Shown here one piece after another: positions 9,074 to 28,589 of a stretch of 32,000 nucleotides of DNA. Position numbers and translations under genes: made by a program. Source of the stretch: Mycolicibacterium smegmatis. GTDB taxonomy: Bacteria > Actinomycetota > Actinomycetes > Mycobacteriales > Mycobacteriaceae. The notes under the pieces were generated by a model. It did no database searches, had not been told where the DNA came from, and saw nothing but the letters and a program-made list of their open reading frames with translations. Positions within the stretch are counted from its first letter, which is position 1; every line of letters begins with the position of its first letter. The stretch spans positions 4,830,001 to 4,862,000 of the forward strand of contig NZ_LN831039.1 in assembly GCF_001457595.1 (NCBI RefSeq). The letters are read 5' to 3'.

Positions 9074-9110
9074 CCGGGGCGAAGTTGTTGCTGTGGTAGG
9101 AGGTTGATCG

Positions 9111-10517
9111 TTGGCGATACAGACTCGCCCCGAACGGGCACGTGCTCGCATGCTGAACTCGGCCGCGACACCGGACAACCGGCTGTCGTTCATCGACCAG
9201 GCCGGGTTCGACATGTTGCGTGCGACCGGTCGCCATCAACTGATGCAGGTGCTCTGGATCTACGAGCACGCCATCGACATGGACGGTCTGCGGCAGTTCC
9301 ACCGCAACTTCGGCTACGGCCTCGCCGGGCGCAGGATCGAGCGGTCACGGTTGCCGTTCGGCCGCCACCGGTGGGTCTCGTGCCCGGGTCCGCAGACCGA
9401 ACTCGCCGTCGCCACCACTGCACGCCCGCGCGCCGACGTCAGCGACTGGGCCGACGAACAGGTACACCTGCCCGTCGATCCCGAACACGGACCGGCATGG
9501 CACATGTCGGTGCTGCCGATGACCGACGGCTCCACGGCCGTGAGCCTGGTGGCGTCACACCACATCGGTGACGGGATCGGCGGGGTGCTGACGCTGATGG
9601 AGGCCGTCGCAGGAACCAAGCGCCAGTTCGGGTTTCCGCTGCCGCGAGCACAGACAGCACGCCGCGCAGTCGCCGCCGACCTGCGCCAGACCGCACGCGA
9701 TCTGCCCGAACTCGGCCGCACAGCGGGCAAGGCCGTCAGACTGCTGCGCCGGCGCGGCGCCGAGTTGCTGCGCTCCGCGCGCGCAGAAAACGAGAGCGCT
9801 CCGCGGACGCTGTCCACCGAACCGGTGTCGGTGCCCGCGGTTTCGGTGTTCGTCGACCTCGACGCTTGGGACCGCTGCGCAACGGGTCTCGGCGGCAACA
9901 GCTACTCGCTGCTGGCCGGTTTCGGCGCGAGGCTCGGTGAGCGGATGAACCGCGCGAATGCCCGAAGCGGCACCGTGACGCTGTCCATCGCACTCAACGA
10001 GCGCACATCGCTGGACGATTCACGCGCGCTGGCGATGACCTTCGCAAGCGCGAGCATCGATCCGCGGCAGTGCACATCCGATCTGACCGGCGTGCGCGCG
10101 ACCATCCGCGAGGCGATCGAGACCGCGCGGACGACCACTGACGAGACTCTCGAACTGCTCCCCCTGATCCCCTTGGTTCCCAAGCGGGCGCTGCAGGGTC
10201 TGGGCGGGCTGTTCTTCGGATCTCCCGACGACCTGCCGGTCTACTGCTCGAATCTCGGCGACGTGGATCCCGCGGTGGGGCGCGCCGACGGAACGGACGC
10301 CGAGTACGTGGTGATGCGCGGCGTCGACCAGAACGTCACGCGACGCGACATCGAGTCGATGGGTGGACAACTCGTCCTGGTGTCGGCACGCGTCAACGGC
10401 AAGATCTCGATCGGCATCGTCGCCTATCAGCTCGATGCCCAGAACTCCAAGACCCGGTTACGCGAACTTGCAGCACTGACGCTCAAGGACTTCGGACTCG
10501 CCGGCGTGATCGAATAG
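9111..10517 (+). CDS. HxxxDG acyltransferase, WS/DGAT- or condensation-like (paralog 2)
   Basis: TTG start 9111 has GGTAGGAGG (9095-9103) 7 nt upstream. An alternative start is ATG 9150. Motif SHHIGDGIG (His 9558-9560, Asp 9570-9572). 468 aa. Paralog of 7706-9073, roughly half identical by eye. Confidence 0.78.
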   Translation: MAIQTRPERARARMLNSAATPDNRLSFIDQAGFDMLRATGRHQLMQVLWIYEHAIDMDGLRQFHRNFGYGLAGRRIERSRLPFGRHRWVSCPGPQTELAVATTARPRADVSDWADEQVHLPVDPEHGPAWHMSVLPMTDGSTAVSLVASHHIGDGIGGVLTLMEAVAGTKRQFGFPLPRAQTARRAVAADLRQTARDLPELGRTAGKAVRLLRRRGAELLRSARAENESAPRTLSTEPVSVPAVSVFVDLDAWDRCATGLGGNSYSLLAGFGARLGERMNRANARSGTVTLSIALNERTSLDDSRALAMTFASASIDPRQCTSDLTGVRATIREAIETARTTTDETLELLPLIPLVPKRALQGLGGLFFGSPDDLPVYCSNLGDVDPAVGRADGTDAEYVVMRGVDQNVTRRDIESMGGQLVLVSARVNGKISIGIVAYQLDAQNSKTRLRELAALTLKDFGLAGVIE

Positions 10518-10533
10518 GAAAGGTGACACCCCC

Positions 10534-12267
10534 ATGACCCGCAGTTCTGTCATAGGTGTTCTGCGCGAGCGAGCGAGCCTGCAACCCGGCGACGTCGCAT
10601 TCACGTTCATCGACTACGACACCGACCCCGAGGGCGTCGCGCACACCCTCACGTGGTCGCAGCTGAATCGTCGCGTGCAGAGCCTGGCATACGAGATGCA
10701 GGCGCGCAGCGCAGTCGGCGACCGTGCCGTGATCCTCGCGCCGCAGGGCCTCGACTACGTCGTGGCGTTCCTCGCGTCGTTGCAGGCCGGGAGGATCGGC
10801 GTCCCGCTGTCGGTGCCATTCCCCGGTGTCCACGACGAACGTGTCACCGCGGTCCTGCGCGACACCGCGCCTTCGATCGTGCTCACCACGTCGGCGGTGT
10901 CCTCGCACATCGCCGAATATCTCGAACCGCAGGCGGGTCAGGCCGCGCCGTGGATCGCCGAGATCGACACGCTCGACCTCGACACCCGGCGTCGCCCGGT
11001 CAAGCGCGAGCAGGCGCCGGAAACCGCCTACCTGCAGTACACCTCGGGCTCCACGCGGACACCGGCCGGCGTCATGGTGTCGCACCGCAACCTGACGGCG
11101 AACTTCGAACAGGTCGTCGCCGGCTTCTTCCCCGACAACATCGCGCCGTCGGACACCACCTCGATCTCGTGGCTGCCGCTGTATCACGACATGGGACTCA
11201 TGCTGGGCCTGTGCGCACCGGTCCTCGGCGGCTGGCACACCGTGCTCATCAGCCCGTTCGCGTTCCTGGCCAAGCCCGCTCGATGGATGCAGCTTCTGGC
11301 GACCCACCCGGCCACTGTGACCGCGGCCCCCAACTTCGCGTTCGACCTCGCGGCGAGGAAGACCTCGGACGCCGACCTCACCGGGATGGACCTCGGTGAC
11401 GTGCGGTGCGTGCTCAGCGGCAGCGAGCGGGTCCACGAGCCGACGCTGCGTCGGTTCTCCGACCGCTTCGCCGCGTTCAACCTCCACGAGCAGGCGCTGC
11501 GCCCCTCGTACGGTCTGGCCGAGGCCACCTTGTTCGTCGCGACGCGTGAAACGGGGCACCCGCCGAAGGTCGCCCGGTTCGCCGCGCAGGAGCTCTCCGA
11601 CGGCCGTGCCGTACCGTGCGACGACGAAAACGGCACCGCGCTGGTGAGTTACGGCATGCCCGAGTCGCCGACGGTGCGCATCGTGGATCCGCAGACCCGG
11701 GCCGAATGCCCGACGGGAATCGTCGGCGAGATCTGGGTGCACGGCGAGAACGTGTGCGCGGGTTACTGGGAGCAGTCCGAACGCACCGAGACGACGTTCG
11801 GCGCGTCGATCGACAGTCCGTCCTCGGGGACGCCGACCGGGCCGTGGCTGCGGACCGGCGACCTCGGGTTCGTCTCGGGCGGTGAACTGTTCATCGTCGG
11901 TCGCATCAAGGACGTCGTGATCATCCGCGGGCGCAACCACTACCCCGATGACATCGAGGCCACCGTGCAGGAGATCACGCGTGCCCGGGCCGCGGCGATC
12001 TCGGTGGACAGGGACGACGCCGAGCACCTGGTGGTCATCGCCGAGGTGCGGGAGAACCAGAATCCCGACGTGAGCCCCGCCGAGTACCTGGCCGACCTCG
12101 AAGGTGAAGTGGTGGCAGCGGTTTCCCGCTCACACGGCATCATCCCGGCCGACCTGGTGCTGGTGCGCCGCGGGGCGATTCCCATCACCACCAGCGGTAA
12201 GGTGCGCCGCGCGTCGTGCGCGGAGCAGTACCGTGACGACACGTTCGCCCGCCTCGTCCACGCGTAG
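10534..12267 (+). CDS. fadD25: Fatty-acyl-AMP ligase (FAAL-type FadD) that would load the PKS
   Basis: ATG 10534 follows a GGAAAGG box. The N-terminus LQPGDVAFTFIDY... is typical of mycobacterial FAALs. AMP-binding motifs YLQYTSGSTRTPAGVMVSHRN, GEIWVHG, GDLGF and TTSGKVRR are present. 577 aa. The symbol is by analogy with Rv1521 in the equivalent M. tuberculosis region and is tentative. Confidence 0.88.
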   Translation: MTRSSVIGVLRERASLQPGDVAFTFIDYDTDPEGVAHTLTWSQLNRRVQSLAYEMQARSAVGDRAVILAPQGLDYVVAFLASLQAGRIGVPLSVPFPGVHDERVTAVLRDTAPSIVLTTSAVSSHIAEYLEPQAGQAAPWIAEIDTLDLDTRRRPVKREQAPETAYLQYTSGSTRTPAGVMVSHRNLTANFEQVVAGFFPDNIAPSDTTSISWLPLYHDMGLMLGLCAPVLGGWHTVLISPFAFLAKPARWMQLLATHPATVTAAPNFAFDLAARKTSDADLTGMDLGDVRCVLSGSERVHEPTLRRFSDRFAAFNLHEQALRPSYGLAEATLFVATRETGHPPKVARFAAQELSDGRAVPCDDENGTALVSYGMPESPTVRIVDPQTRAECPTGIVGEIWVHGENVCAGYWEQSERTETTFGASIDSPSSGTPTGPWLRTGDLGFVSGGELFIVGRIKDVVIIRGRNHYPDDIEATVQEITRARAAAISVDRDDAEHLVVIAEVRENQNPDVSPAEYLADLEGEVVAAVSRSHGIIPADLVLVRRGAIPITTSGKVRRASCAEQYRDDTFARLVHA

Positions 12268-12271
12268 CACC

Positions 12272-13102
12272 ATGGGGACGAAAACGCCGGTCGTGGCGGC
12301 CATCCCGAACTACAACATGGGCCACAACCTCAACAGGTTGCTTCCCGAGGTGCTGGCGCAGGGTTACGACGCGGTGTACGTGCTCGACGACGCCTCGACC
12401 GACGACAGCGCGGATGTGGTGCGCCAGTTCGGCAGCGACGTGAAATTCGTGCGCAGTCCCCGCAACCAGGGGGCCGGCGCCAACCGCAACCAGATCATCG
12501 ACTGCGTCGACGACAAGACACTCATCCACTTCGTCGACGCCGACATGGAACTGCGTACCGACCGGATACCCGACACCGCGCGAGAAGTGTTCGCACGCTA
12601 CGAACATCGCGGTGTCGGCATGATCGGCGGTCTGGTGTGCCGTCACGACGGAACGCAGGAACCGCACAACTACGGTGCGGTGTTCTCCGCGTGGGGTGGT
12701 CTCACCTCGGGGCTTCCGCTTATGATCGACCGGCTGCGCGACAGGCCCAGGCTCGCGGCCGCGGCGCAGCGCATTGCCGCACCGCTCATGAAGGAGTGGC
12801 CCAACATCCTGGCCACACCCCAGCCCACCCCGGCGTACTGGCTGCACGAGGGCAACATGCTGGTCGACTCGGGTGTGCTGCGATCACTGGGTGGATACGA
12901 TCCGGACCTGCGTTGCCACGAGGCCCAGGATCTGGCGATCCGCATGGAAAAGCGTGGCATCGGACGACAGTTCGACCCTGACATCAGGGTCGTGCATCTG
13001 CACATCGACGTTCGCGGCAAGAACCGCAACCGGTGGGCCAACCACGCGGTGCGGCAATTGATCCGCAAGCACGGGCTGATGCGCTGGCTGTGCGACCGCT
13101 GA
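12272..13102 (+). CDS. Family 2 (GT-A) glycosyltransferase
   Basis: ATG 12272 lies 4 nt after the fadD stop. The track ORF start at 12104 would overlap fadD. The N-terminus VVAAIPNYNMGHNL...YVLDDASTDDS and the DxD motif FVDADME are classic GT2 signatures. 276 aa. Confidence 0.85.
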   Translation: MGTKTPVVAAIPNYNMGHNLNRLLPEVLAQGYDAVYVLDDASTDDSADVVRQFGSDVKFVRSPRNQGAGANRNQIIDCVDDKTLIHFVDADMELRTDRIPDTAREVFARYEHRGVGMIGGLVCRHDGTQEPHNYGAVFSAWGGLTSGLPLMIDRLRDRPRLAAAAQRIAAPLMKEWPNILATPQPTPAYWLHEGNMLVDSGVLRSLGGYDPDLRCHEAQDLAIRMEKRGIGRQFDPDIRVVHLHIDVRGKNRNRWANHAVRQLIRKHGLMRWLCDR

Positions 13103-13106
13103 CGCG

Positions 13107-13877
13107 CTAGATGGTCGACACGCCGCTGGCCAGCATCAGGACACCGAACAATCCGAGGATGCAGGCGAAGATCGGCCTGCGGTACGCGCCGATCCAGTCG
13201 TGCATCCTCGCCACGATCGCCTTGGTCTTCACCGGCGACGCCAGATAACCCACCAGCGGGATCTCCGCGATCGCAAATGACACGAGCGAGAACACGATTG
13301 CCGCGCAGACCTGGGTGCCGATCGCGGCGCCTGACGCTGCGATGGCCAGGATCGCGAAGCAGTACTCCAGCGGTGGGGTCGCCGAGAACAGTCCCGCGGC
13401 GAACGCCATGGCGGCCGAGTTGCCCCACCGGCCCGAGAACAGCGCGGGCCACGACAACCGGGACAACAGCGACCGTTTTCCCGACGCGGTGGATGCCGCG
13501 GGTGTTGCGGCCGCGGCAAACGCCATGGCGGACACGGGGTCGGCCACTTCCGATACCGGCGCGACGAGCGTGCGACGGCGGGCGCGCATCGCGATGACCA
13601 CCGCCACGGGTATCGCGAGCAGACCCATGGCGATCTGAAGCGGTGGGATGACCGGCTTTTCGGCAGCGGCGACGACGAATTCCGTCACCGGCCGCACCAC
13701 GCCGGGCAGGAACGTGAGCGCGATGACCGCCAGACCCACGCCGGCGGCCATCAGACCGAGCCAGTACGCCAACAGATTGGCCACCGGTCGTTCACGTCCG
13801 ATCAGCAGCAACGTGATCCCGATCCGGACCGGGTCGACCGCCGACACAAGCGCGAGTACCAGGACTGCGCTCCACAT
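13107..13877 (-). CDS. Gap/Sap-like polytopic membrane protein (glycolipid-addressing protein family)
   Basis: 256 aa and almost entirely hydrophobic, with about 6-7 predicted TM segments by eye. The N-terminus MWSAVLVLALVSAVDPVRIGITLLLIGRERP... resembles the Gap/Sap (Rv1517-like) family as I remember it. Its position inside an MmpL glycolipid locus fits. The family call is from memory, not alignment. Confidence 0.62.
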   Translation of the reverse strand: MWSAVLVLALVSAVDPVRIGITLLLIGRERPVANLLAYWLGLMAAGVGLAVIALTFLPGVVRPVTEFVVAAAEKPVIPPLQIAMGLLAIPVAVVIAMRARRRTLVAPVSEVADPVSAMAFAAAATPAASTASGKRSLLSRLSWPALFSGRWGNSAAMAFAAGLFSATPPLEYCFAILAIAASGAAIGTQVCAAIVFSLVSFAIAEIPLVGYLASPVKTKAIVARMHDWIGAYRRPIFACILGLFGVLMLASGVSTI

Positions 13878-13888
13878 ATCACACCACG

Positions 13889-15715
13889 CTATTTCTTGGC
13901 GGCAGACGCCGCTTGCTTGTCTTGCTTGCCGGCATCCTTCGCCGCTGCACCATGTGCCGCACGAGGTTTGGTCTGCCGGTCATTGTGGTCCCCGGCGGCG
14001 TGCTTCGGTGCGGAATTCTTTTCCCGCGACGGTTTCGCCGACGCGGTGTCCGAATCGGGCGCGCGGTGTTTCGGCGCGGACTCCTTGTCCGAGGGTTTGG
14101 CGGTGAGCCCGGAGGAGTGCCTGCCGCGCTTGCTCGCCGAGGTGCCCTCGGACTTCTCCTTCGGCTCGGGTTTGGCGTCGGCGGGCTTGGTCACGGCCTT
14201 GTCCTCGCTGCCGGAATCTTTCGCCACGGTGGTCGGCTTCTTCGTGTCGGACGTTTCCGGCGTTTCCGACCCAGACGGTTCCGACTCAGAGGATTCAGAG
14301 GGCTCAGAGGGCTCCGCATCGGCTTCGTCGCCCGCCTCGTCCGCGGCCTGGAGCCTGGGCTTCGTCAGGGTCGTGACCTTCGCCTGCGTTTTCTCCGTGA
14401 CCGCGCCGATCTTGGCGGTGACCGCATCTGCCTCGGCCTCGGTGGCATCTGTGAGCCGCGAGACCAGCGTGGCCTTCACCGACGAATCGTCGGCGAGCTC
14501 AGTGCCTTTGGAGGCTTCTTTGGTGAGGTCCTCGTCGGGGTCGAGGTAGTCCACGTCCGGGCCGCCCACACCGAACGGACCGGGACGCACCGTGCCGAAC
14601 GGGCGCGTGCCGTTGACATCCTCGATCGCGTTGTCCCACCCGGTGGGAATCGCGACAAGGAAATCGGCCGCGGTCTTCAGCGGGTCCTTCGCAGGAACGA
14701 GGGTCCACGGCTTGGGTTCACCGGGACTCGATGTGCGGTCGTAGCCCGATTCCACGAGAACCCGCAGTGGCGCGTCGAGGACGTCTGCCAGAAACGAGCC
14801 GACGATTGGCGTCTGTGAGAGTTCGTACAACAGCGGCAGGGTGTCCGTCGGGATCATCAGGTACCGGGTGTCGCCGTACTGGCCCTGATCGATGATGCCT
14901 GGAGAGCCGAGGCTGTAGTCCGCGTAGTGGGGATGCAACAACCGTTGCCCGGCATTCGCATTGGCGACGGCCAGCAGATTGGCGGGGTTGATGGGCTGAT
15001 CCGCCCAACCGTCGTACTGGATGGCAACGTCGATCGTCGAATACTGGGTGTCCGTCGGCGTCGACCCGTTGAACGTCACCCCACCGCCGGGCGTGCCGAG
15101 CGGGATCGTCACACCTTTGGGTCCCCGCGCGAGGAAGCCGCCGTTGGGCCGGTTTCCGTTGGCGGTCAGGATGAACGAGACGTCCGGGCCCTCTCCGTAC
15201 GGGTACAGGGCGGCAAGCCTGGCCTTTTCCAGAGTGGCGATGGCAGCGCTCTGCGAGTAGCCGAAAACCACCAGATTGTCCCCGGGCGCCGGCCGGTCCG
15301 ATCCGAGATCCTCGTTGATGTCGCACTCGTCACCCGATTCGATGCACGTCGCCAGTTTCCCGGCTCCGGCGGCGACCGAATCGTCGAATGTCAGCGAGGT
15401 GTCTCCGGGTTCACCGGAGTTGAACTGCGCGGGTGTGATGACCGCGACCGCGTTGTACGGCCCGCCGGGGATACCGCTGCCGGGCCGCGACGCCGACGGT
15501 ATGACATAGTTCCCCACAACCTTCGAGGTGTAGTCCCTGATGAACGGCAGTCCGTCCTGATCGGTGGTGAGCGGGTCCCCCGATCCCCCCATGATGAGAA
15601 CACTGGTCCTCGCGGCGGCCGCCGCAACCGAGACCACCGTCGAGACCAGACCCAGGGCCATGACGCTCAGCAGGGCGATGAGCCCCACGCGAACGTCGCG
15701 CATCGTTACGCGCAT
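13889..15715 (-). CDS. Secreted or anchored PE-PPE-domain serine hydrolase/transesterase with a roughly 210-aa charged low-complexity C-terminal tail
   Basis: ATG 15715 has GGAAGGA 5 nt upstream. There is an N-terminal signal/anchor (GLIALLSVMALGLVSTVVSVAAAAA). The GxSxG-type nucleophile elbow FGYSQS (Ser codon 15254-15256) is characteristic of the PE-PPE alpha/beta-hydrolase domain. The conserved fold ends near PDVDYLDPDED. The remaining sequence (nt 13892-14533) is rich in K/A/S/E/D/T/P. Confidence 0.8.
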   Translation of the reverse strand: MRVTMRDVRVGLIALLSVMALGLVSTVVSVAAAAARTSVLIMGGSGDPLTTDQDGLPFIRDYTSKVVGNYVIPSASRPGSGIPGGPYNAVAVITPAQFNSGEPGDTSLTFDDSVAAGAGKLATCIESGDECDINEDLGSDRPAPGDNLVVFGYSQSAAIATLEKARLAALYPYGEGPDVSFILTANGNRPNGGFLARGPKGVTIPLGTPGGGVTFNGSTPTDTQYSTIDVAIQYDGWADQPINPANLLAVANANAGQRLLHPHYADYSLGSPGIIDQGQYGDTRYLMIPTDTLPLLYELSQTPIVGSFLADVLDAPLRVLVESGYDRTSSPGEPKPWTLVPAKDPLKTAADFLVAIPTGWDNAIEDVNGTRPFGTVRPGPFGVGGPDVDYLDPDEDLTKEASKGTELADDSSVKATLVSRLTDATEAEADAVTAKIGAVTEKTQAKVTTLTKPRLQAADEAGDEADAEPSEPSESSESEPSGSETPETSDTKKPTTVAKDSGSEDKAVTKPADAKPEPKEKSEGTSASKRGRHSSGLTAKPSDKESAPKHRAPDSDTASAKPSREKNSAPKHAAGDHNDRQTKPRAAHGAAAKDAGKQDKQAASAAKK

Positions 15716-15731
15716 CGAAATCCTTCCCCCG

Positions 15732-16616
15732 CTACCGAGTTACCGGGTCCACCGGTGGAGAGAAACTCTCCAGGAACGACTTGGGCTGACGCAGACGAAT
15801 GGCAGGCCACCGCGTGAACGACGCGGGGCCCAGGGCGCTCCACAGCGTGGCAGCGGTCCCTTTCGAGGGCTCCAGACCGTAGTCGTGGCGAAGGTGCTCG
15901 CGGTACGGCAACGCGGGGCCGAAGAGGATGTTTCCCGAGTGGTTCTCGCCGGTGTCGACGTGATAGACCGCGCCGGGGAAGGGCAGCGGCTCCAGGGCAC
16001 GACCGCGGTCACGCCACCAGTCGTAGGCGAAACCGTGCTCGAGCGACCGTTCCAGCCGCTCCCCGAAGGCGTCGGCGATCGCACGCTGGCCCGAGGTGAC
16101 GGTGAGTTCGGGCGGTACCTCGTAGGCCGACCAGGGGATGATGAACGACGTGCCGCAATAACGATAGAAGTTGCGACGCAGCGCGTAAGCGTTTCGGCGC
16201 CGCGAGTAGATCCAGCCCCGTGTGCTCACCCAGCCGGGCGCCCCCGGGTGCGCGGCGACGAAAGCCGCGATATCGCGATGCACGAAATCGTCGGCATCGA
16301 CGAACATCACATGATCGGGGGCATACTCCCGGGCGGCAACCAGCCCTATCGCGTTCTTGGTGCCCTTGTCCCAGATCACCGAAGCCGGACCGGTGCGGGG
16401 ACCGTTGTGGGTCGACGGCGGCGGGAAGTCGACCTCGACGAACACGGCCCGCGGTGGGAGTTCGAACGCAGGCAACCGATTTCCGACGATGATGATGAGA
16501 TGGTCGTCACAGGACTGCCGGCTGACCGATCGAAGCGTGTCCTGAAGCAGCGCTTCGACGCGACCGTAATCCGCGGAGTTCCGCGGATGTCGCAAGGTGG
16601 TGATGAAGGCCAGCAT
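15732..16616 (-). CDS. Putative GT-A-fold glycosyltransferase (Rv1518-like)
   Basis: 294 aa. The N-terminus MLAFITTLRHPRNSADY...LLQDTLRSVSRQ and the DxD motif FVDADDF are typical of GT2-like enzymes. The codon pattern is strongly GC3-biased. The family call comes from motif memory only. Confidence 0.6.
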   Translation of the reverse strand: MLAFITTLRHPRNSADYGRVEALLQDTLRSVSRQSCDDHLIIIVGNRLPAFELPPRAVFVEVDFPPPSTHNGPRTGPASVIWDKGTKNAIGLVAAREYAPDHVMFVDADDFVHRDIAAFVAAHPGAPGWVSTRGWIYSRRRNAYALRRNFYRYCGTSFIIPWSAYEVPPELTVTSGQRAIADAFGERLERSLEHGFAYDWWRDRGRALEPLPFPGAVYHVDTGENHSGNILFGPALPYREHLRHDYGLEPSKGTAATLWSALGPASFTRWPAIRLRQPKSFLESFSPPVDPVTR

Positions 16617-16743
16617 CGCGGGGAACTCTACCGAGTTCAGAGCGTTATCACGAATCGGTGAACGCCCAAATAATCAGCCGGACAGCACATTACGTGATCT
16701 TGGAATCGCGGCAAACCACAGTGGATTTGCTCCGCGTCACCGA

Positions 16744-17811
16744 TCACACACGGGAGACCGCCAGGCCGGTCCGCAGCACCCCGTAGTCGGTGTCGAGTCG
16801 CGCGCGCAGCACGTCCACGGCCGCGCGGGTCTTCTCCCGGATCGCCGCGGCATCGTCCAGCGTCGCCAAAACCCGCTCCACCACGGCAGACACACTCAAC
16901 GCATCGGTACGCAACAACGACCGCTCATCATCGATCGACAACGCGAAATCACGGCACTTGGGCTGATACTCCAACGAGATCACCGGCGTCTGCGACAACG
17001 CCGCCAAAATCCCCGCATGCAAACGGCTCACGATCACCGCCGAACAACCAGCAAGCTCCGCAGCCGCCCCCGCCGCATCGACCGGCGCCACGATCCGAGC
17101 CCCCGTACCCGCCAACGCCTGCTCGGTCCACCGACGATCCGCACCGTTCATCAAGATCCCCACAAACCGGAACCCACGCGCCGAAAGCTCCCGCACCGCC
17201 CCAGAAATCACATCAGCCACACCAGCGGGGTCGTGGCCCCACAAGTCGTCGCCGAACCCGAGGTTCAACCCGATCACACCGTCCTGCGGCACCACCTGCG
17301 GACGATCCAACAACAACGCCGGATCACCGGCCACCGTCACCTCAAGACCCGCATCCGCCAGCAACTGCGCACTCCGCGGCCCCCGCACCGAGACCACCCG
17401 AAACCGCGACAACAACGGAATCCAGCGCCGCAACTCATCAGGCCCCGAGCCGCTGCGGCGTCCTTCGAAGACGGGGTCTTCCACGCCGACGCCGATGGCG
17501 TAACTGCCGTGTGTACCTGTCAGTTTCAGGCCGTGGCCGGCCACGCGCCGCCAATGGCGCCTACCGATCAGGGTTCCGCCGCCGATCACCTGCGCGCTGC
17601 GCCGCAACAAGCGGTTACGACCCGACACCACCGCACGCAACCGCTCCCCCGGCAACACCGGAAGATCCACGAACCCCGCGCCCGGCAACTGCGCACACAC
17701 CGCGTCATAAATCGCGTCATCACCCAGATTGCCCCGACCATGCCACCCCAGATAACCCACCAAGGGACGCACAGTGGCCGCGCCCTCGACCGGTCGGCGT
17801 GATGTGGTCAT
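16744..17811 (-). CDS. Polysaccharide pyruvyl transferase (copy A)
   Basis: 355 aa. The N-terminal GYLGWHGRGNLGDDAIYDAV and the SRLHAGILA block match the pyruvyl-transferase (CsaB/WcaK/PssM-like) family. The ATG (17809-17811) overlaps the stop of copy B (17808-17810) as ATGA. Confidence 0.8.
   Translation of the reverse strand: MTTSRRPVEGAATVRPLVGYLGWHGRGNLGDDAIYDAVCAQLPGAGFVDLPVLPGERLRAVVSGRNRLLRRSAQVIGGGTLIGRRHWRRVAGHGLKLTGTHGSYAIGVGVEDPVFEGRRSGSGPDELRRWIPLLSRFRVVSVRGPRSAQLLADAGLEVTVAGDPALLLDRPQVVPQDGVIGLNLGFGDDLWGHDPAGVADVISGAVRELSARGFRFVGILMNGADRRWTEQALAGTGARIVAPVDAAGAAAELAGCSAVIVSRLHAGILAALSQTPVISLEYQPKCRDFALSIDDERSLLRTDALSVSAVVERVLATLDDAAAIREKTRAAVDVLRARLDTDYGVLRTGLAVSRV
16791..17778. 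repeat. Tandem direct repeat, unit 1 (body of pyruvyl transferase copy A)
   Basis: Compared by eye with 17855-18845. 16791-17243 is identical to 17855-18307. There is one substitution at 17244/18308 and a 3-nt (gtc) insertion in unit 2. 17245-17448 is identical to 18312-18515. A diverged patch spans 17449-17570. 17571-17778 matches 18638-18845 with one mismatch (17671/18738). Confidence 0.95.
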
Positions 17812-18884
17812 GACGCGTGTGGTCCGAGTTCGGCTCGCAAGACGTCGTACTGGGTGTCGAGTCGCGCGCGCAGCACGTCCACGGCCGCGCGGGTCTTCTC
17901 CCGGATCGCCGCGGCATCGTCCAGCGTCGCCAAAACCCGCTCCACCACGGCAGACACACTCAACGCATCGGTACGCAACAACGACCGCTCATCATCGATC
18001 GACAACGCGAAATCACGGCACTTGGGCTGATACTCCAACGAGATCACCGGCGTCTGCGACAACGCCGCCAAAATCCCCGCATGCAAACGGCTCACGATCA
18101 CCGCCGAACAACCAGCAAGCTCCGCAGCCGCCCCCGCCGCATCGACCGGCGCCACGATCCGAGCCCCCGTACCCGCCAACGCCTGCTCGGTCCACCGACG
18201 ATCCGCACCGTTCATCAAGATCCCCACAAACCGGAACCCACGCGCCGAAAGCTCCCGCACCGCCCCAGAAATCACATCAGCCACACCAGCGGGGTCGTGG
18301 CCCCACAGGTCGTCGTCGCCGAACCCGAGGTTCAACCCGATCACACCGTCCTGCGGCACCACCTGCGGACGATCCAACAACAACGCCGGATCACCGGCCA
18401 CCGTCACCTCAAGACCCGCATCCGCCAGCAACTGCGCACTCCGCGGCCCCCGCACCGAGACCACCCGAAACCGCGACAACAACGGAATCCAGCGCCGCAA
18501 CTCATCAGGCCCCGACGCATTCTGCGTTCGCGGGTACGCCGGGTCCTCGACCCCTGCGCCGATGGCGTAACTGCCGCGCGTTGCGGTCAGCTTCAGGCCG
18601 CGGGCCACGAGCGGACGGAAATAGCGTGTGCCCAAGAGGGTTCCGCCGCCGATCACCTGCGCGCTGCGCCGCAACAAGCGGTTACGACCCGACACCACCG
18701 CACGCAACCGCTCCCCCGGCAACACCGGAAGATCCACAAACCCCGCGCCCGGCAACTGCGCACACACCGCGTCATAAATCGCGTCATCACCCAGATTGCC
18801 CCGACCATGCCACCCCAGATAACCCACCAAGGGACGCACAGTGGCGGCGGTCGCACGATTGTCGGTTGCCCGGTTCAGGCTCAT
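17808..18884 (-). CDS. Polysaccharide pyruvyl transferase (copy B)
   Basis: The track ORF extends to 19004. ATG 18884 (MSLNRATDNRATAATVRPLVGYLGW...) gives an N-terminus colinear with copy A. 358 aa. It has the same family motifs as copy A and is nearly identical to it over most of its length. Confidence 0.75.
   Translation of the reverse strand: MSLNRATDNRATAATVRPLVGYLGWHGRGNLGDDAIYDAVCAQLPGAGFVDLPVLPGERLRAVVSGRNRLLRRSAQVIGGGTLLGTRYFRPLVARGLKLTATRGSYAIGAGVEDPAYPRTQNASGPDELRRWIPLLSRFRVVSVRGPRSAQLLADAGLEVTVAGDPALLLDRPQVVPQDGVIGLNLGFGDDDLWGHDPAGVADVISGAVRELSARGFRFVGILMNGADRRWTEQALAGTGARIVAPVDAAGAAAELAGCSAVIVSRLHAGILAALSQTPVISLEYQPKCRDFALSIDDERSLLRTDALSVSAVVERVLATLDDAAAIREKTRAAVDVLRARLDTQYDVLRAELGPHAS
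17855..18845. repeat. Tandem direct repeat, unit 2 (body of pyruvyl transferase copy B)
   Basis: Partner of 16791-17778. The offset is 1064 nt, then 1067 nt after the codon indel. The identical 60-aa antisense ORFs in the track (16949-17131 and 18013-18195) independently show the identity. Confidence 0.95.
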
Positions 18885-19177
18885 GAAAACTCTCTGGCGT
18901 TCGGCTTGAATTGTCATCGAAAAGGTGCGCGCCGTCCGTCGCACTCGCAGATGGGCGGGCCGATGAAGGATCCAACGGTACCCCGCCACGTGGCCTGCGG
19001 CCATCTTCGGTCATACTGGTGGTATCCGGTCGGCCCACGAAAAGACGCGTTTGTCGCGTCGATGCTAGCCTCCCGGAAAACAACAGGTGTGGTGGGCGGC
19101 CCCGATCCGGGTCGCCCCGATTGCGGCGCACCGATTCGACGACGTCGAAATTTCACATGCTCGAGGAGTTTTAGCAA

Positions 19178-19750
19178 ATGTTGAGAGCGCTTGGCGCCCT
19201 GCGTCAGAAGACCGATTACCGGCGATGGGCCGAACCTCGCAACATTTACTCGTCATGGGAGAGCCGCACGCAGCGGGCGGCCGAACTCATTCCGGACGGC
19301 AGCCGGGTCATCGAATTCGGCGCTGCCAAACGGGTGCTGGAACGCCATCTCGACCCGTCGTGCACCTACGTGCCGTCCGACATCGTCGATCGCGGGCCGG
19401 GAACCATCGTCGCCGATCTCAATGACCGCCCGCTACCGGACTTCGCCCCGGGCACCTACGACGTCGCGGTGTTCATGGGGGTTCTCGAATACATCCAGGA
19501 TCTGCCTGCGCTTGTCGACTGGCTCGCCGAACGCTTCCCGAAGTGTGTGGTCTCGTACGCGTGTGCGCGTGATGACGCGCATTCCCTGCGGGCACTGCGG
19601 GAGAAGGCCGTACGCCTGCAGCACGGCTGGATGAACAGCTACACCGGCGATCAGCTGCGGTCGGAGTTCACCGCACGCGGCTACGCGGTCACCCACGAAG
19701 AGAGCTGGGAGAACCAGCAGATGTTCGTGTTCTCACAGCTCCCCCGCTGA
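19178..19750 (+). CDS. Small class I SAM-dependent methyltransferase (atypical motif I)
   Basis: ATG 19178 has GAGGAG (19163-19168) 9 nt upstream. 190 aa. VIEFGAA occupies the motif I position. DVAVFMGVLEYIQD is typical of the post-II/III region of class I methyltransferases. Confidence 0.6.
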   Translation: MLRALGALRQKTDYRRWAEPRNIYSSWESRTQRAAELIPDGSRVIEFGAAKRVLERHLDPSCTYVPSDIVDRGPGTIVADLNDRPLPDFAPGTYDVAVFMGVLEYIQDLPALVDWLAERFPKCVVSYACARDDAHSLRALREKAVRLQHGWMNSYTGDQLRSEFTARGYAVTHEESWENQQMFVFSQLPR

Positions 19751-19757
19751 GCGGTCG

Positions 19758-20438
19758 CTACCGGCACTCGGCAAGTCCGAGTCGGTTGTTGCGGCGGAAC
19801 TCGACCGCACCCACGACGTCGTCCGAACGGCCGATCTCCAGCCATGCCTCGTGCATGCCCTGGCCGTATGTGATGTCGTCGAACAAGACCAGGCCGCCAG
19901 GCGACATCAGCGGCTTCAGGATCTCCCACTGCTGCATGACGAAGTCGTAGGTGTGGATTCCGTCGACGAACGCGATGTCGATGGATCCCGGAACCTCCGT
20001 CACATGTTCCTCAAATGCCCCACGCGTCAACGTGAAACGCTGCGTCAGTTGCGCGATGGACCGCTCGGCGACGGCCGCCCATGAATCGTTGATCTCGAAG
20101 CTGTACAGGTGTCCGGTGCCGTTCGACTCGATGCCCACACCGAAATACATGCCCGACACCCCGAATCCCGACCCGAACTCGACCACGGTCTGGGGCTTCC
20201 GTTGCATGACCAGCCACGCGTAGAGGTCACCCTGGAACGGGGGCGAACTGACGTCGCGCGGAGTGAATTTGGCTTCCGGCATGTCGTATTCGGGCGCGAG
20301 GGCCTGGGGGCCCAGTTGTTCGTGGTTGGCAGCCAGGATGGCTTCTATCCGGTCTTTGTGCGGTGCGGGCGGGAATCGGCTTGGCATATCGGCGATCCAG
20401 CCACCGCGCGTGATCCACTTCAACGAGCGCGTAAACAT
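19758..20438 (-). CDS. Class I SAM-dependent O-methyltransferase (family-3-like)
   Basis: 226 aa. Motif I is VVEFGSGFGVSG. An acidic residue ends beta-2 (YSFE). The IDIAFVDG and LVLFDD blocks are typical of cation-dependent O-MT-like enzymes. There is no SD, but a -10-like TAGACT lies 6 nt upstream of the ATG. Confidence 0.75.
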   Translation of the reverse strand: MFTRSLKWITRGGWIADMPSRFPPAPHKDRIEAILAANHEQLGPQALAPEYDMPEAKFTPRDVSSPPFQGDLYAWLVMQRKPQTVVEFGSGFGVSGMYFGVGIESNGTGHLYSFEINDSWAAVAERSIAQLTQRFTLTRGAFEEHVTEVPGSIDIAFVDGIHTYDFVMQQWEILKPLMSPGGLVLFDDITYGQGMHEAWLEIGRSDDVVGAVEFRRNNRLGLAECR

Positions 20439-20526
20439 TGATGCAGTCTAGCCAGGCACCACGACCCGTTCGCCGGTGCACCGCGGAATTTGCCGGCTCA
20501 TGATCGATCTTGGTTCACAACAACAT

Positions 20527-21774
20527 TCACGCCGGCATCGGGCGCGCCGCCGCCTCGAGGAGGTCGGCCGTCATCCTGACACTGTCCGCCGGCGTCGTCA
20601 TCTCGTCGGCGATCTGCCGTGCCCGAAGCGCGGCCCGCGGCGTCAGCACCGTCTGCAGGCCCGCCAGAAGCGAGTCGGGGGTGACCTTCGAAAACCGTTC
20701 TGCGGTACCGGCTTGCAACCGTTTCACAGCCGCCGCCCAGACCGGCTGGTCCGCGCCGACCCAGAGGATCAGCGTCGGCCTGGCGGCCCGCAGGCCCGCC
20801 GCGGTGGTACCGGCACCACCGTGGTGCACGACCGCGCGGCACAGCGGGAAGATCTTGGCGTGGTTCACCGCGCCGACCACCTTGACGTGATCGCTCTCGG
20901 GTATCGCGTCGAGGTTCCACGCGCCGGAACTGATCAGGGCGCGCTCCCCGAGCCGGGTGCACACAGACGAGATCATCGTCACAGCGTCGGCGGGAGATTG
21001 CACCGGCATGCTGCCGAACCCGAAATAGATCGGCGGCTTTCCACTTGCGGCCCAAGCTGTCACGTCGTCGTCGGTATCGGTGGGAAGTTCCAGCGTCAGC
21101 GCCCCGACAAAAGGACGTGTTCCTCGCCACTCTTGCCGCAGGCCGGGAAAGAACACCTCGTCGTACGCCTGGATCTCCAATGTGCCACTCGAGACGATCC
21201 GGTTCACCGAGCTGGATCTGGCGGGCGCAAGCCCCAATTCACGTCGCTGAGCGTCCTCCGCGCTTTTCAGGATCTGCCAGTAACCCCACTCCGCCACCGC
21301 CCACATCGGCTCGACGATTCGCCCGGGTAGCCGGATCGGAAGAATCTGGCTATTGGCCCGGTGCGGGAAGTAATGCAGCGCTGCCAGCGGAATCTGTTCA
21401 CTCTCGGCGACATTGGCAACGACTTCTTGATACGTGGTGCCGGTCAACAGCACGTCGGCGCCATCGGCCAATGCGGCCACGGTGGCACTCATCTCGGCCC
21501 ATCCGCCCACCATGTATTCCCGGCCCTCGCGGATCGCTTTGACCGGATTGCGGATTTTCCAGAAATCGCGGAACGTGTCGGCATCCAATTGCTGTTGAGA
21601 ATCCACGCCGTAGGATTCCGCAGACAACCCGATACGTTCCACGAACGGAACGAGGTTGGGCGGCACCGCCATCCGCACCTCGTGGCCGCGGCGACAGAGC
21701 TCGGTGGCCACGGTTGCGCTCGGTTCGATGTCGCCACGGGTGCCGTGGATCGCCACTACAAATTTCATCGTCAT
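20527..21774 (-). CDS. GT1-family (MGT/Gtf-like) nucleotide-sugar glycosyltransferase
   Basis: The track ORF runs to 21990, but the conserved N-terminus starts at MTMKFVVAIHGTRGDIEP (ATG 21774, or 21768). The C-terminal donor-binding block is VVHHGGAGTTAAGLRAARP. About 415 aa, typical for mycobacterial Gtf enzymes. Confidence 0.85.
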   Translation of the reverse strand: MTMKFVVAIHGTRGDIEPSATVATELCRRGHEVRMAVPPNLVPFVERIGLSAESYGVDSQQQLDADTFRDFWKIRNPVKAIREGREYMVGGWAEMSATVAALADGADVLLTGTTYQEVVANVAESEQIPLAALHYFPHRANSQILPIRLPGRIVEPMWAVAEWGYWQILKSAEDAQRRELGLAPARSSSVNRIVSSGTLEIQAYDEVFFPGLRQEWRGTRPFVGALTLELPTDTDDDVTAWAASGKPPIYFGFGSMPVQSPADAVTMISSVCTRLGERALISSGAWNLDAIPESDHVKVVGAVNHAKIFPLCRAVVHHGGAGTTAAGLRAARPTLILWVGADQPVWAAAVKRLQAGTAERFSKVTPDSLLAGLQTVLTPRAALRARQIADEMTTPADSVRMTADLLEAAARPMPA

Positions 21775-21903
21775 CCCGGATTGCTCGGCAGGCGTGGGAT
21801 CCCCGAGGTGCCCGCCCGGACAACAGCACGCTATAAGGGACGGGCGCTTCCCACAAACCCCGCAAAACGTTGACGCAGTTGAGAAGGTCGCAATCCGTGT
21901 AGC

Positions 21904-24900
21904 ATGACGGGGATGTTCCGGCGCTTCGTGCCGCGAAATTGGTTGTCGCGGGTAGGATTCTCCGGTCTTGGGAGATTCATAGTTCGCCATCCCCTCGTAG
22001 TCATCGCCTCCTGGTTGGCGGTCGCGGGTGTGTTGCTGGCGGCTGTCCCTTCGCTGCCCGCAGTCGCCGAACGTAATCCCCCCGGCTTTCTGCCCGCCGA
22101 TTCCGAGGTGTTCGCCGCCGGCAATGCCATGCAGGAGGCATTCAACGAAACAGGCGGCGGAAATGTCGCGATCGCCATCCTCAGCAACGAGAACGGGTTG
22201 ACGCCGGCCGACGAGGAAACCTATCGCGCGCTGGTCGACAAGCTACGGGCCGACACCGAATACGTGTTGTCGACACAGGACTTCGTGACCATCCCCGAAC
22301 TGCGTCAGGTGATGACCAGTGAGGACAACAAGGCGTGGCAGTTGCCGATCAGCGCGGCCGGAACCATGGGCACCGCGGAGGGACAGAACGCCTACCGGCA
22401 GATCGTCGACACGGTCAAGTCCTCGACGGCCAACACCTCGCTTTCGGCCGAGGTGATCGGTCCGGCCGCGACGTTCGAAGACGTCGTCAAGATCGGCGAA
22501 CGCGATCAGCACGTCATCGAGATCGCCACCGTGCTGATCGTGCTGATGATCTTGATCATCGTCTACCGCAACCTCGTCGCGATGCTGCTCCCCCTCCTGA
22601 TGATCGGGATGGCCCTCGTGGTGGCCGAGCAGTCCGTGGCCGGTCTGGGTGCGATCCATCTGATCGGTCTGGGCCCGCAGACCCTGATGCTGATGACCGC
22701 CATGATGATGGGCGCGGGCACCGACTACGCCATCTTCCTGTTCAGTCGCTACCACGAGTGCGTACGTTCGGGGCTCAGTTCCGACGACGCCGTCGTCGAG
22801 GCGCTCGACTCGATCGGCAAGGTGATCGCCGGTTCGGCGGGCACGGTCGCCATCACCTTCATGGGGCTGGCGTTCACCGACCTCGGCGTCTTCTCGACGG
22901 TCGGCCCCGCGCTGTCGGTCACCATCGGCTTCGGGTTCGTCGCATCGGTGACCCTGCTGCCCGCGATGGTCGTGCTCGCGGGCCGCCGCGGCTGGGTCAA
23001 ACCCCGCAAGGACCTCACCGGCCGGATCTGGCGGCGCTCCGGCGTACACATCGTGCGCAAGCCCGTCATCCACCTCGTCGCCAGCCTCACCGTGCTGCTC
23101 GCGCTGGCCGGCTGCGCAATGCTGGTGAACTTCAACTACGACGACCGCAAGAACCTGCCCGACGATGCGCACAGCAACATGGGTTACGCGGCGCTCGACA
23201 AGCACTTCCCGGTGAGCAGCACCGTCCAGCAGTTCATCCTGATCCAGTCCCCGCACGATCTGCGCAGCCCCAAGGCACTGGCCGACATGGAGCAGATGGC
23301 CCAGCGCGTGAGCCAACTGCCCGACATCGAGATGGTCCGCGGCGTCACCCGTCCCACGGGCGAGATGCTCCAGGAGGCCAGGGCGACCTGGCAGGCCGGC
23401 GAGGTGGGCGGCAAGCTCAATGACGCGTCCACCCTGATCGACGCCAACGACGCGAACCTCTCCACGTTGAGCGGAGGCGCGCACAAGCTCGCCGATGTCC
23501 TGGGCCAGATCAGCACGCAGGTGACCAACGCGCTCGTGACGGTGCGGCCACTGGCCGGCGCGCTGGCGGACATGGAGACCAAGTACGGCGGCGAGAAGAC
23601 CCTCGACCAGATCGATCAGAGCGCCGAACTGGTGGCCAACATGCGCTCGCTGGGCCGCGCGATGGGCGTCAACCTCGCACGCATCACCGACGTGTACGAC
23701 TGGTCCGCGCCCATGGTGCGCGCCCTCAACGTCAGCCCGGAGTGCAACCTCGACCCGGCGTGCGCGGCGTCGCGGTCGGATCTGCAGCGCATCGTCGAGG
23801 CCAAGGACAACGGAAACCTCGACAAGTTCGCCGAACTCGGACGCCAGCTGGAGTCCACCGAAGGTGACGAGACCCTCGACGAGGCGGTCTCCGGTCTGCA
23901 GCAGAGCATCAAGGAGGCCACGGCGGCCGCTCGGGAACTGGGGCTCGAAGACGCGAGCAGCGTCAAGCGACAGCTCGACCAGTTGGAACAGGGCGTCAAC
24001 CTGCTCGCCGATTCCAGCCATCAGCTCGCACAGGGCGTGCAGCTGCTCGTCGACCAGACCAGGAACATGGGCCAAGGCCTCGACCAGGCCTCACAGTTCC
24101 TGCTCGCGATGAAGCGCGACGCGTCGGATCCGCAGATGTCCGGCTTCTACATCCCGCCACAGATCCTCACCCAAGAGGAATTCAACAAGGCCGCAGCGCT
24201 TTTCGTCTCACCCGACGGCCGCTCGGTCCGGTATCTGGTGCAGACGGCCCTCGACCCGTTCGGCACCGCGGCCATGGACCAGGTCAAGGACATCGTGAAG
24301 ACGGCCGAAAGCGCCCGTCCCAACACGTCTTTGACGGACGCGAAGATCTCACTGGTCGGTTTCTCGTCGATCCAGAACGAGATGCGCAACTACTACGACG
24401 GCGACCTCCGATTCATCATCACCGTCACCCTGATCGTGGTGTTCCTGATCCTCGCCGCGCTGTTGCGGTCGATCATCGCGCCGATCTATCTCGTGTTGTC
24501 CGTGGTCCTTTCGTACATGTCGGCACTGGGCATCGGTGTGGTCTTCTTCCAGTTCATCCTGGGCAAGGAGATCGTCTGGACCGTTCCCGGCATGGCGTTT
24601 CTGGTGCTCGTCGCCGTCGGGGCCGATTACAACCTGCTGTTGATCTCGCGAATACGCGACGAGGCGGCACACGGTATGCGCACGGCCGTGATCCGCACCA
24701 TCGGCGCCACCGGCGGCGTCATCACATCAGCAGGACTCATCTTCGCGGCATCGATGTTCGGCCTGACGTTCAGCAGCCTGCTGGCCGCCGTGCAGATCGG
24801 TTTCATCATCGGCGTCGGCCTGCTGCTGGACACGTTCCTGGTGCGCACCATCACGGTGCCCGCCGCGGCCGTGCTGATCGGCAAGCTCAGTTGGTGGCCG

Positions 24901-24966
24901 ACGAAACCCCCTGCCCCAGAGCCTGCCCCCACCGAACCGACGGTGGCACCCGCAGCCCAGGCGTGA
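21904..24966 (+). CDS. mmpL12: MmpL-family RND glycolipid transporter
   Basis: 1020 aa with 12 TM-like segments in a 1+5 / 1+5 layout. Two MMPL signatures are present, GTDYAIFLFSRYHE and GADYNLLLISRIRDE. The N-terminus GRFIVRHPLVVIASWLAVAGVLL resembles MmpL12 as I recall it. An alternative start is ATG 21913. The symbol is by locus analogy. Confidence 0.93.
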   Translation: MTGMFRRFVPRNWLSRVGFSGLGRFIVRHPLVVIASWLAVAGVLLAAVPSLPAVAERNPPGFLPADSEVFAAGNAMQEAFNETGGGNVAIAILSNENGLTPADEETYRALVDKLRADTEYVLSTQDFVTIPELRQVMTSEDNKAWQLPISAAGTMGTAEGQNAYRQIVDTVKSSTANTSLSAEVIGPAATFEDVVKIGERDQHVIEIATVLIVLMILIIVYRNLVAMLLPLLMIGMALVVAEQSVAGLGAIHLIGLGPQTLMLMTAMMMGAGTDYAIFLFSRYHECVRSGLSSDDAVVEALDSIGKVIAGSAGTVAITFMGLAFTDLGVFSTVGPALSVTIGFGFVASVTLLPAMVVLAGRRGWVKPRKDLTGRIWRRSGVHIVRKPVIHLVASLTVLLALAGCAMLVNFNYDDRKNLPDDAHSNMGYAALDKHFPVSSTVQQFILIQSPHDLRSPKALADMEQMAQRVSQLPDIEMVRGVTRPTGEMLQEARATWQAGEVGGKLNDASTLIDANDANLSTLSGGAHKLADVLGQISTQVTNALVTVRPLAGALADMETKYGGEKTLDQIDQSAELVANMRSLGRAMGVNLARITDVYDWSAPMVRALNVSPECNLDPACAASRSDLQRIVEAKDNGNLDKFAELGRQLESTEGDETLDEAVSGLQQSIKEATAAARELGLEDASSVKRQLDQLEQGVNLLADSSHQLAQGVQLLVDQTRNMGQGLDQASQFLLAMKRDASDPQMSGFYIPPQILTQEEFNKAAALFVSPDGRSVRYLVQTALDPFGTAAMDQVKDIVKTAESARPNTSLTDAKISLVGFSSIQNEMRNYYDGDLRFIITVTLIVVFLILAALLRSIIAPIYLVLSVVLSYMSALGIGVVFFQFILGKEIVWTVPGMAFLVLVAVGADYNLLLISRIRDEAAHGMRTAVIRTIGATGGVITSAGLIFAASMFGLTFSSLLAAVQIGFIIGVGLLLDTFLVRTITVPAAAVLIGKLSWWPTKPPAPEPAPTEPTVAPAAQA

Positions 24967-28513: not shown

Positions 28514-28589
<76 letters not shown>

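Follow-up and report, generated by a model that had tools for sequence, protein, structure and literature searches.

Near-identical cores around a divergent patch in a tandem pair of pyruvyl transferase genes from the lipooligosaccharide island of Mycolicibacterium smegmatis

The tandem genes and their alignment

Two genes for pyruvyl transferases (PTs) lie head-to-tail on the minus strand of a glycolipid gene cluster in Mycolicibacterium smegmatis, and over most of their length they are nearly the same sequence. We analyzed them within a window of 32,000 nt, the whole stretch under study (NZ_LN831039.1, positions 4,830,001-4,862,000; coordinates below are window positions, counted on the plus strand). 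Across this window, Pfam domains identify a pks5-like polyketide synthase (PKS), a PapA-type condensation protein, FadD, a GT2 and a GT1 glycosyltransferase, Sap, PE-PPE, two methyltransferases and MmpL. These domains supply the full set by which a lipooligosaccharide (LOS) island of the MSMEG_4727-4741 type is recognized, namely a clustered Pks5-like PKS, PapA-type acyltransferase, FadD, glycosyltransferases, methyltransferases, Sap/Gap-like protein and MmpL. The window is the Lsr2-silenced LOS island MSMEG_4727-4737 of M. smegmatis, and it differs from the corresponding sequence of strain mc2 155 by ~1%. The two genes and their junction are as follows.

16744-17811, minus strand: copy A, the downstream pyruvyl transferase gene, an open reading frame (ORF) of 355 aa with a type I patch (PF04230, E 8.8e-24)
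17808-18884, minus strand: copy B, the upstream pyruvyl transferase gene, an ORF of 358 aa (ATG at 18884) with a type II patch (PF04230, E 1.2e-24)
17808-17811, minus strand: ATGA overlap joining the stop of B to the start of A, the junction of a tandem unit exactly one gene long (1073 nt)

Both products match the family profile PF04230 (PS_pyruv_trans) over positions 1-279 of 280, copy A with 85.3 bits and copy B with 88.2 bits against a cut-off of 25.3. The copy A protein differs at one residue from its counterpart in strain MKD8 (P0001) and at two from MSMEI_4619 of mc2 155 (P0002); a look-up of the exact protein found it annotated in none of the recorded assemblies. The copy B protein is identical to CKI20601.1, is annotated with 358 aa in other strains as well, and shares its N-terminus, MSLNRA, with the single genes of M. 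goodii and of a further relative, L064; gene order suggests that it corresponds to MSMEG_4737. Start codons are inconsistent in public records, which give copy A 355 or 338 aa and copy B 358, 339 or 319 aa, and copy B has also been annotated as a 97-aa fragment, MSMEI_4620. For copy A we favor the ATGA-coupled start because the residues MT..RRP that follow it are conserved between M. smegmatis and the distant relative Mycobacterium sp. GA-1841.

Exact pairwise alignment of the two copies divides them into the segments listed here.

16744-16788, minus strand: diverged C-terminal tail of A (DYGVLRTGLAVSRV), with a DYGVLRT motif in common with M. goodii
16789-17243, minus strand: 455-nt exact repeat, A arm (C-terminal domain, core 2), equal to the B arm
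17245-17448, minus strand: 204-nt exact repeat, A arm
17449-17569, minus strand: type I patch of copy A, residues 81-121, IGRRHWRR...VFEGRRSGSG
17570-17782, minus strand: core 1, A arm, residues about 11-80
17783-17811, minus strand: A-specific N-terminus MTTSRRPVEG, homologous to the start (MTGARRP) of GA-1841's downstream copy
17808-17852, minus strand: diverged C-terminal tail of B (QYDVLRAELGPHAS), with a QYxVLRAELG motif in common with L064
17853-18307, minus strand: 455-nt exact repeat, B arm
18308-18310, minus strand: 3-nt insertion in B, (GAC)3 against (GAC)2 on the coding strand, DDD against DD
18312-18515, minus strand: 204-nt exact repeat, B arm
18516-18636, minus strand: type II patch of copy B, LGTRYFRP...AYPRTQNAS
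18637-18849, minus strand: core 1, B arm

This alignment bears out, almost to the base, a preliminary description of the locus that had reported a near-identical tandem with an ATGA overlap and had left the strand unnamed. Two of its lengths needed correction. The exact repeat it had placed from 16791 over 453 nt is real and runs for 455 nt from 16789, and what it had read as 208 nt with a single mismatch is a near-identical stretch, core 1, of 213 nt with two mismatches (17671 and 17779). The single substitution (17244 A, 18311 C) and the in-frame insertion (18308-18310) following the long repeat were seen as described, as were the 204 identical nucleotides (17245-17448 equal to 18312-18515). 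The patch (121 nt, 62% DNA identity) and the gene ends (55-66% in 20-codon windows, 55-58% in narrower end segments) are diverged, also as described. In all, cores of about 870 of 1070 nt are near-identical, and divergence is kept in three places: ~12 codons at the start, the 41-codon patch and ~15 codons at the end. As for the 3-nt indel, it is a polymorphism of triplet slippage; in copy B the (GAC)2/(GAC)3 state varies among strains, L063 and L071 lacking the extra GAC in their B genes, and the L064 gene also carries the longer form.

The differences between the copies are anything but evenly spread. In a GENECONV-type test, no permutation out of 200,000 of the 54 differing columns reached an identical run of 455 nt (the maximum was 288), so the differences are clustered far beyond chance. 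Synonymous sites, described earlier as essentially unsaturated, have diverged little in the cores. There, Nei-Gojobori estimates give a synonymous divergence (dS) of 0.019 in core 1 and 0.006 in core 2, with a nonsynonymous divergence (dN) of 0 in both; in the patch, dS is 1.11 and dN 0.305. The diverged ends are as deep as the patch. For scale, dS between M. smegmatis and M. goodii is 0.7-1.2 throughout. The ratio dN/dS of the patch is ~0.28 between types and ~0.1 within a type. A neighboring pair of paralogs of unknown family (7706-10517), previously put at about half identity, shows 48% protein identity over 446 residues.

Gene conversion, patch types and the age of the pair

The two versions of the patch recur across mycobacteria as discrete types. 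Type I (GRRxWRR...GRxSGS) is found in copy A, in M. goodii and in most homologs. Type II (GT[RSK]YFR...RRQNAS) is found in copy B, in L064, in the protein P0012 and in the second copies of L001, L005 and L010. In these last three, both types coexist in one genome at 69-75% DNA identity and are ordinary old paralogs. The patch of copy B is 80.5% identical in DNA to that of L064, and the patch of copy A is 80.2% identical to that of M. goodii; both values agree with the 79-86% identity of the core among orthologs. Neighbor-joining trees with bootstrap, built separately for core and patch, are discordant. The tree of the core makes A and B sisters with 100% bootstrap, and M. smegmatis, M. goodii and L064 group in it by lineage. 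In the patch tree, B joins L064 (100%) in a type II cluster (67%) and A joins M. goodii (58%), while the grouping of A with B receives 0%. A third patch form, GVRYFR...GRGSGS, type II-like in its front half and type I-like in its back half, occurs in L023-L030 (M. sphagni, M. rhodesiae, M. psychrotolerans, M. vinylchloridicum and relatives).

Exchange between the copies can be followed among M. smegmatis strains. We compared the window, mc2 155 (CP001663), MKD8 (CP027541) and the metagenomic strain L063. At alignment columns 207, 861 and 915, the two copies of a strain both carry a base peculiar to that strain. Within a micro-patch at columns 585-594, A and B differ in mc2 155 and MKD8 and are identical in the window; the B gene of L063 has the A-type state over columns 567-588, and tract boundaries vary among all four strains. 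Over 872 core columns, A and B differ by 2 substitutions in the window and 9 in mc2 155, and between strains there are 6 from A to A and 8 from B to B. The same core differs by 129 substitutions between the window and L064, and by 164-174 between the window and M. goodii. Paralogs within a genome are thus closer than orthologs between genomes, the pattern expected of concerted evolution. Gene conversion had been one of two origins proposed for the near-identity; it is upheld by the discordant trees, by the strain-specific bases in both copies and by the strain-varying tract boundaries. These observations show recurrent, nonreciprocal homologous exchange between the copies.

The age of the pair is best judged from GA-1841, for which one further gene of the window serves as a landmark.

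15732-16616, minus strand: 294-aa gene 3' of copy A, an ORF without a Pfam match

Homologs of this gene stand beside PT genes at 13 related loci. On contig L035 of GA-1841, the C-terminal half of copy 1 leads through a ACATGACC stop/start overlap into copy 2, whose N-terminus, MTGARRP, is the counterpart of MTTSRRP in copy A and whose patch is type I. On contig L043, copy 2 continues with its C-terminal half, after which come a 130-nt spacer, the 294-aa gene (81% identity) and a PE-PPE gene. The resulting layout, PT-ATGA-PT-294aa-PE-PPE, is that of the window. The two C-terminal halves in GA-1841 differ at 1 of 464 nt, namely the A that creates the downstream ATG, whereas their identity to M. 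smegmatis is only ~79%. GA-1841 is the outgroup at every flanking gene compared: its identity to the window is 70% for FadD, 70% for PE-PPE and 71% for Sap, against 91%, 85% and 85% for M. goodii and 86%, 79% and 79% for L064. The GA-1841 assembly is fragmented at the repeat. Because the junction, the A-type N-terminus and the downstream type I patch are common to this outgroup and M. smegmatis, the most parsimonious reading is that tandem and junction are ancestral and predate the split from GA-1841, and that the copies have been homogenized separately in each lineage.

We therefore hold it to be very probable that this is an ancient tandem pair of ketal-pyruvyl transferase genes whose cores have been homogenized by recurrent, ongoing interlocus gene conversion and whose patch has been spared. 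Two processes could spare the patch. Convertants that lose one patch type would usually be purged by selection, and the local divergence of the patch would hinder conversion tracts from crossing it. The long exact repeats, in turn, would make the pair prone both to conversion of the patch and to deletion leaving a single hybrid gene. Such repeat-driven events would explain the single-copy state of M. goodii and L064 as well as the variant M. smegmatis assemblies.

The standard configuration, a type II patch in B with a type I patch in A, is found in ~20 M. smegmatis assemblies and in every complete genome. Two drafts near-isogenic with the window depart from it. In L072, the tandem is present, and the gene in the B position is B-type except for a type I patch, which is A-type at every diagnostic site save column 308; the converted tract was therefore 121-419 nt long. 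This new patch differs from the strain's own A patch at one diagnostic base, with k-mers absent from a window-type genome. Two distinct type I patches in the one genome make an assembler path error unlikely. In L071, a single hybrid gene is B-type to at least column 577, carries (GAC)2 and has an A-type 3' end. It may be the product expected of a crossover in the long exact repeat; assembly collapse would give the same sequence. A third configuration, type II in both copies, appears to be implied by the adjacent protein accessions MDF1904036 and MDF1904037, a reading taken from accessions rather than DNA. The documented variation among near-isogenic strains is conversion of the patch, in L072, and not deletion.

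Among relatives, both M. goodii genomes have a single gene combining a B-type N-terminus with a type I patch. It begins ATGAGT and ends CCATGATC, so that ATGA stands at both ends. The one PT gene of L064 is type II from end to end, and the 294-aa gene comes after it. In M. goodii, the spacer 3' of copy A is kept (L061:7075-7330 and L062:7075-7335, against window 16599-16743), and of the 294-aa gene nothing is left beyond its first ~18 nt (ATGCAGGCCTTCACCACC, against ATGCTGGCCTTCATCACC in the window). This remnant is a deletion scar, and M. goodii therefore underwent a deletion at the locus. The earlier proposal that recombination changes the copy number is suggested by the single genes of M. 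goodii and L064 and by L071, which may be a collapsed assembly; the amplification proposed with it was seen in none of the M. smegmatis assemblies compared. An apparent deletion of 0.7 kb in L067 was rejected as evidence on copy number, since L067:3756-3855 is a scaffold gap of 100 N that stands in for ~0.8 kb. Nineteen draft contigs break off within copy B around residues ~197-205, at the beginning of the long exact repeat (partial proteins P0124, P0125, P0127 and P0129).

The role of the patch and competing explanations

What the patch does can be approached through the fold of the enzyme. The AlphaFold model has a predicted local distance difference test (pLDDT) score of 91.3 and a GT-B-like two-domain fold, and Foldseek matches it, among GT-B enzymes, to yeast Pvg1p (5ax7) at E 1.8e-6; sequence searches of the PDB returned only a marginal match to Pvg1p. 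R263-L264-H265 of copy A are invariant in 61 homologs and align to DRLHAHIL of Pvg1p. Phosphoenolpyruvate (PEP) is bound by an Arg/His pair in the known enzymes, R337/H339 in Pvg1p and R306/H308 in CsaB (PMC10435577). In the model, residues 81-121 come directly after an invariant GGGT loop and form a helix (85-101), a strand (103-110) and a loop (111-125). This would put the patch at the cleft between the two domains, just past the GGGT loop in the Rossmann-like N-terminal domain. Acceptor contacts of the known enzymes lie in the N-terminal half. In CsaB, T94 is six residues past S88; in Pvg1p, Y165 and the specificity-altering H168 are six and nine residues past G159, the counterpart of S88 (PMC10435577). 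If the GGGT loop is taken as the counterpart of S88 and G159, these acceptor-contacting positions would, by their offsets, map to the beginning of the patch.

The comparison has clear bounds. CsaB of Paenibacillus alvei and Pvg1p of S. pombe (5ax7) have in common with copies A and B the Pfam family, a GT-B-like two-domain fold, an RLH motif for PEP in the C-terminal half and acceptor contacts in the N-terminal half. They differ in that sequence identity is only ~15%, and in the acceptor, which would be a glucose of the acyltrehalose-based LOS for A and B, known from sequence and a model, and is ManNAc-GlcNAc-PP-lipid (N-acetylmannosamine and N-acetylglucosamine) or galactose for the two characterized enzymes. 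According to PMC6801904, which cites Saadat and Ballou 1983, the M. smegmatis glycolipid glycan carries 4,6-pyruvate on two glucoses, the terminal 3-O-methyl-glucose and the residue beneath it. Because each patch type is under purifying selection and because the glycan has two pyruvylated glucoses, we propose that the patch may set which of the two LOS glucoses each enzyme 4,6-pyruvylates. By the predicted structure and the analogy to CsaB and Pvg1p, we give this proposal an even chance.

The most serious competitor accepts conversion and denies the patch any role in specificity: the patch would be a mechanical barrier to conversion tracts, and the two enzymes would be redundant. Tract ends do match the drop in identity, there are genomes with one patch type twice (L072 and L015), and single-copy relatives exist. 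Against it stand the dimorphism, kept with discrete motifs across distant lineages; the dN/dS of ~0.28 between and ~0.1 within types, which indicates purifying selection on each; the two distinct pyruvylated residues of the glycan; and the putative alignment, by offset, of CsaB T94 and Pvg1p Y165/H168 with the start of the patch. We regard this explanation as possible and rather unlikely. A barrier due to low identity may nonetheless act as an additional cause alongside selection.

Several points weigh against an old, converted pair whose patch is held apart for its function. First, the patch could persist merely since 62% identity blocks the extension of heteroduplex. Second, L072, with type I twice, and L015, with type II twice, show that homogenization of the whole patch is possible and can persist. 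Third, the variant configurations of M. smegmatis all come from short-read drafts. Fourth, the link to specificity is drawn from where the patch sits in a predicted structure and from residue offsets relative to CsaB and Pvg1p, and homologs of the 294-aa gene stand beside both patch types, so that gene content assigns no sugar to either. Finally, the affinities of the two halves of the locus are discordant, the left half being closer to L064 and the right half to M. goodii, which suggests that lineages have also recombined in the past, with the breakpoint close to the transferase genes.

The underlying observations are these. Within window positions 10534-24966, L064 is the closer of the two relatives for MT23 and MT24 (89-91%, against 77-86% for M. 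goodii), and M. goodii is the closer one for FadD, PE-PPE and Sap (83-91%, against 79-86% for L064). The L015 locus (L015:8028-11014, Mycobacterium sp. 1245111.1) has two type II PT genes that flank a homolog of the 294-aa gene and share 99.6% DNA identity; it looks like another, independent case of homogenization, with the patch included. A strict pairing of the type II patch with the 294-aa gene was considered and rejected, as homologs of that gene adjoin type I genes in L002-L004, L007, L012 and L013.

Imported DNA offers a different account of the mosaic, in which a recently duplicated gene received a foreign patch of 120 nt, for example by conjugal transfer. Distributive conjugal transfer yields mosaic genomes in M. 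smegmatis, and the discordant affinities of the locus halves to L064 and M. goodii would fit. Import, however, leaves unexplained the strain-specific bases in both copies, the near-identity of the two copies in GA-1841 and the diverged ends, which are as deep as the patch; and the new B patch of L072 has a donor in the resident A patch. We judge this account improbable.

The other origin proposed in the preliminary description, a very recent duplication, is very hard to maintain, even if the patch and ends are supposed to have diverged quickly by adaptation once the tandem had formed in M. smegmatis. The near absence of synonymous differences in the cores and the single copy of M. goodii are what it would lead one to expect. 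Yet the dS of the patch, 1.11, is at or above the between-species value, put here at 0.7-0.9 between M. smegmatis and M. goodii, and a young duplication with adaptive change is excluded by it because positive selection raises dN and not dS. Moreover, each of the two patch types is matched, at the divergence of orthologs, in some other species; the outgroup GA-1841 has the same junction, an A-type N-terminus and a type I downstream patch; and the 294-aa remnant in M. goodii points to deletion there. A recent transfer of the tandem from M. smegmatis to GA-1841, which might rescue the idea, is argued against by the ~79% DNA identity. We consider the recent-duplication claim refuted by the patch dS, the patch types of other mycobacteria and the GA-1841 junction. 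As for the near-identity being an assembly artefact, the repeat does break drafts (the 100-N gap of L067, the 19 contigs ending in B, the fragmented GA-1841), but the same mosaic tandem is present in the independent complete genomes CP001663 and CP027541 and in several other assemblies, each with its own strain-specific differences, and the repeat is therefore no artefact, a verdict we hold with near certainty.

Under the reading that we prefer, an old pair under recurrent conversion, a more speculative step can be taken. The pair might act as a recombination-driven switch of surface-glycolipid chemistry, akin to the phase variation between mono- and di-pyruvylated LOS first suggested, in which conversion of the patch or deletion to a single hybrid gene leaves only one LOS glucose pyruvylated. 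We put this forward tentatively and doubt it more than we believe it. If it were true, one would expect strains with two type I genes, with two type II genes or with one type II gene only; surface charge and phage interactions would be altered; and the patch would be a natural, portable module of acceptor specificity for ketal-pyruvyl transferases.

Known parallels and biological meaning

The concerted evolution of bacterial paralogs is familiar from tufA and tufB in enterobacteria. Interlocus conversion is also known in the PE/PPE, esx and other paralog families of M. tuberculosis (PMC13061034, PMC12046097, PMC1762029). The pair described here resembles all of these in that paralogs are closer within a genome than orthologs are between genomes, in its mosaic tracts, in its shared variants and in the failure of short-read assemblies at such loci. 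It is unlike them in being a pair of biosynthetic enzymes in the glycolipid cluster of a saprophytic mycobacterium, with a patch that is dimorphic across species and is spared in the middle of the converted region. Since concerted evolution of tandem paralogs is already known, mycobacteria included (PMC13061034, PMC12046097), the pair is a new and unusually clean example of it. Literature searches on pyruvyl transferase, LOS and smegmatis, on MSMEG_4736 and on the variant assemblies found no paper describing the pair or its variants.

Two further systems are close in form. In the HMA4 model (bioRxiv 10.1101/2025.10.29.685298), with interlocus gene conversion and selection on one copy, tandem copies are homogenized save for islands of divergence, as here; the HMA4 study is eukaryotic and model-based, and selection on our patch is a proposal. 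Chimeric genes formed by deletion between paralogs (PMC13626634) look like the M. goodii gene, with its B-type N-terminus and type I patch. The L071 gene, with a B-type 5' part and an A-type 3' end, likewise looks like the product of a single crossover, a putative deletion. Unlike those chimeras, M. goodii has also lost the 294-aa gene, which a simple crossover of B by A does not explain.

The surroundings of the pair bear on its expression and on phage biology. Upstream of copy B lies the following region.

18885-19177, minus strand: intergenic region 5' of copy B, from the gene layout, divergent from a methyltransferase gene at 19178-19750

It is presumed to hold the promoter of an operon running B-A-294aa-PE-PPE-Sap. 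The LOS island is silenced by Lsr2, its de-repression alters phage adsorption, and the promoter deleted in that study is named MSMEG_4737p there (PMC11139207). Within the presumed operon, the PE-PPE gene (13889-15715) has a called product of 608 aa in the window family, 621 aa in the mc2 155 type, 625 aa in MKD8 and 555 aa in L068, where the start differs; its C-terminal third is of low complexity and rich in Ala, Lys, Ser, Glu and Pro. Elsewhere in the window, a tRNA gene (28514-28586, plus strand; RF00005, 69 bits) is the sole Rfam match and lies in a stretch without long ORFs.

The finding has several consequences. First, there is a practical warning: the locus corrupts short-read assemblies, producing N gaps, truncated genes and possibly collapsed copies, and constructs made to knock out or complement MSMEG_4736 or MSMEG_4737 can recombine with whichever copy was not targeted. 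Second, because the de-repressed LOS island affects adsorption (PMC11139207), recombination in the pyruvylation genes could matter for studies of M. smegmatis phages and their host. Third, the natural inference that near-identical copies are young duplicates is corrected by this pair, which is old and actively homogenized. Finally, saccharide pyruvylation has been termed mechanistically unexplored (PMC10435577). The mosaic of the two genes amounts to a natural domain-swap experiment that narrows the likely determinant of acceptor specificity to about 40 residues, a prediction that is testable in a model organism.

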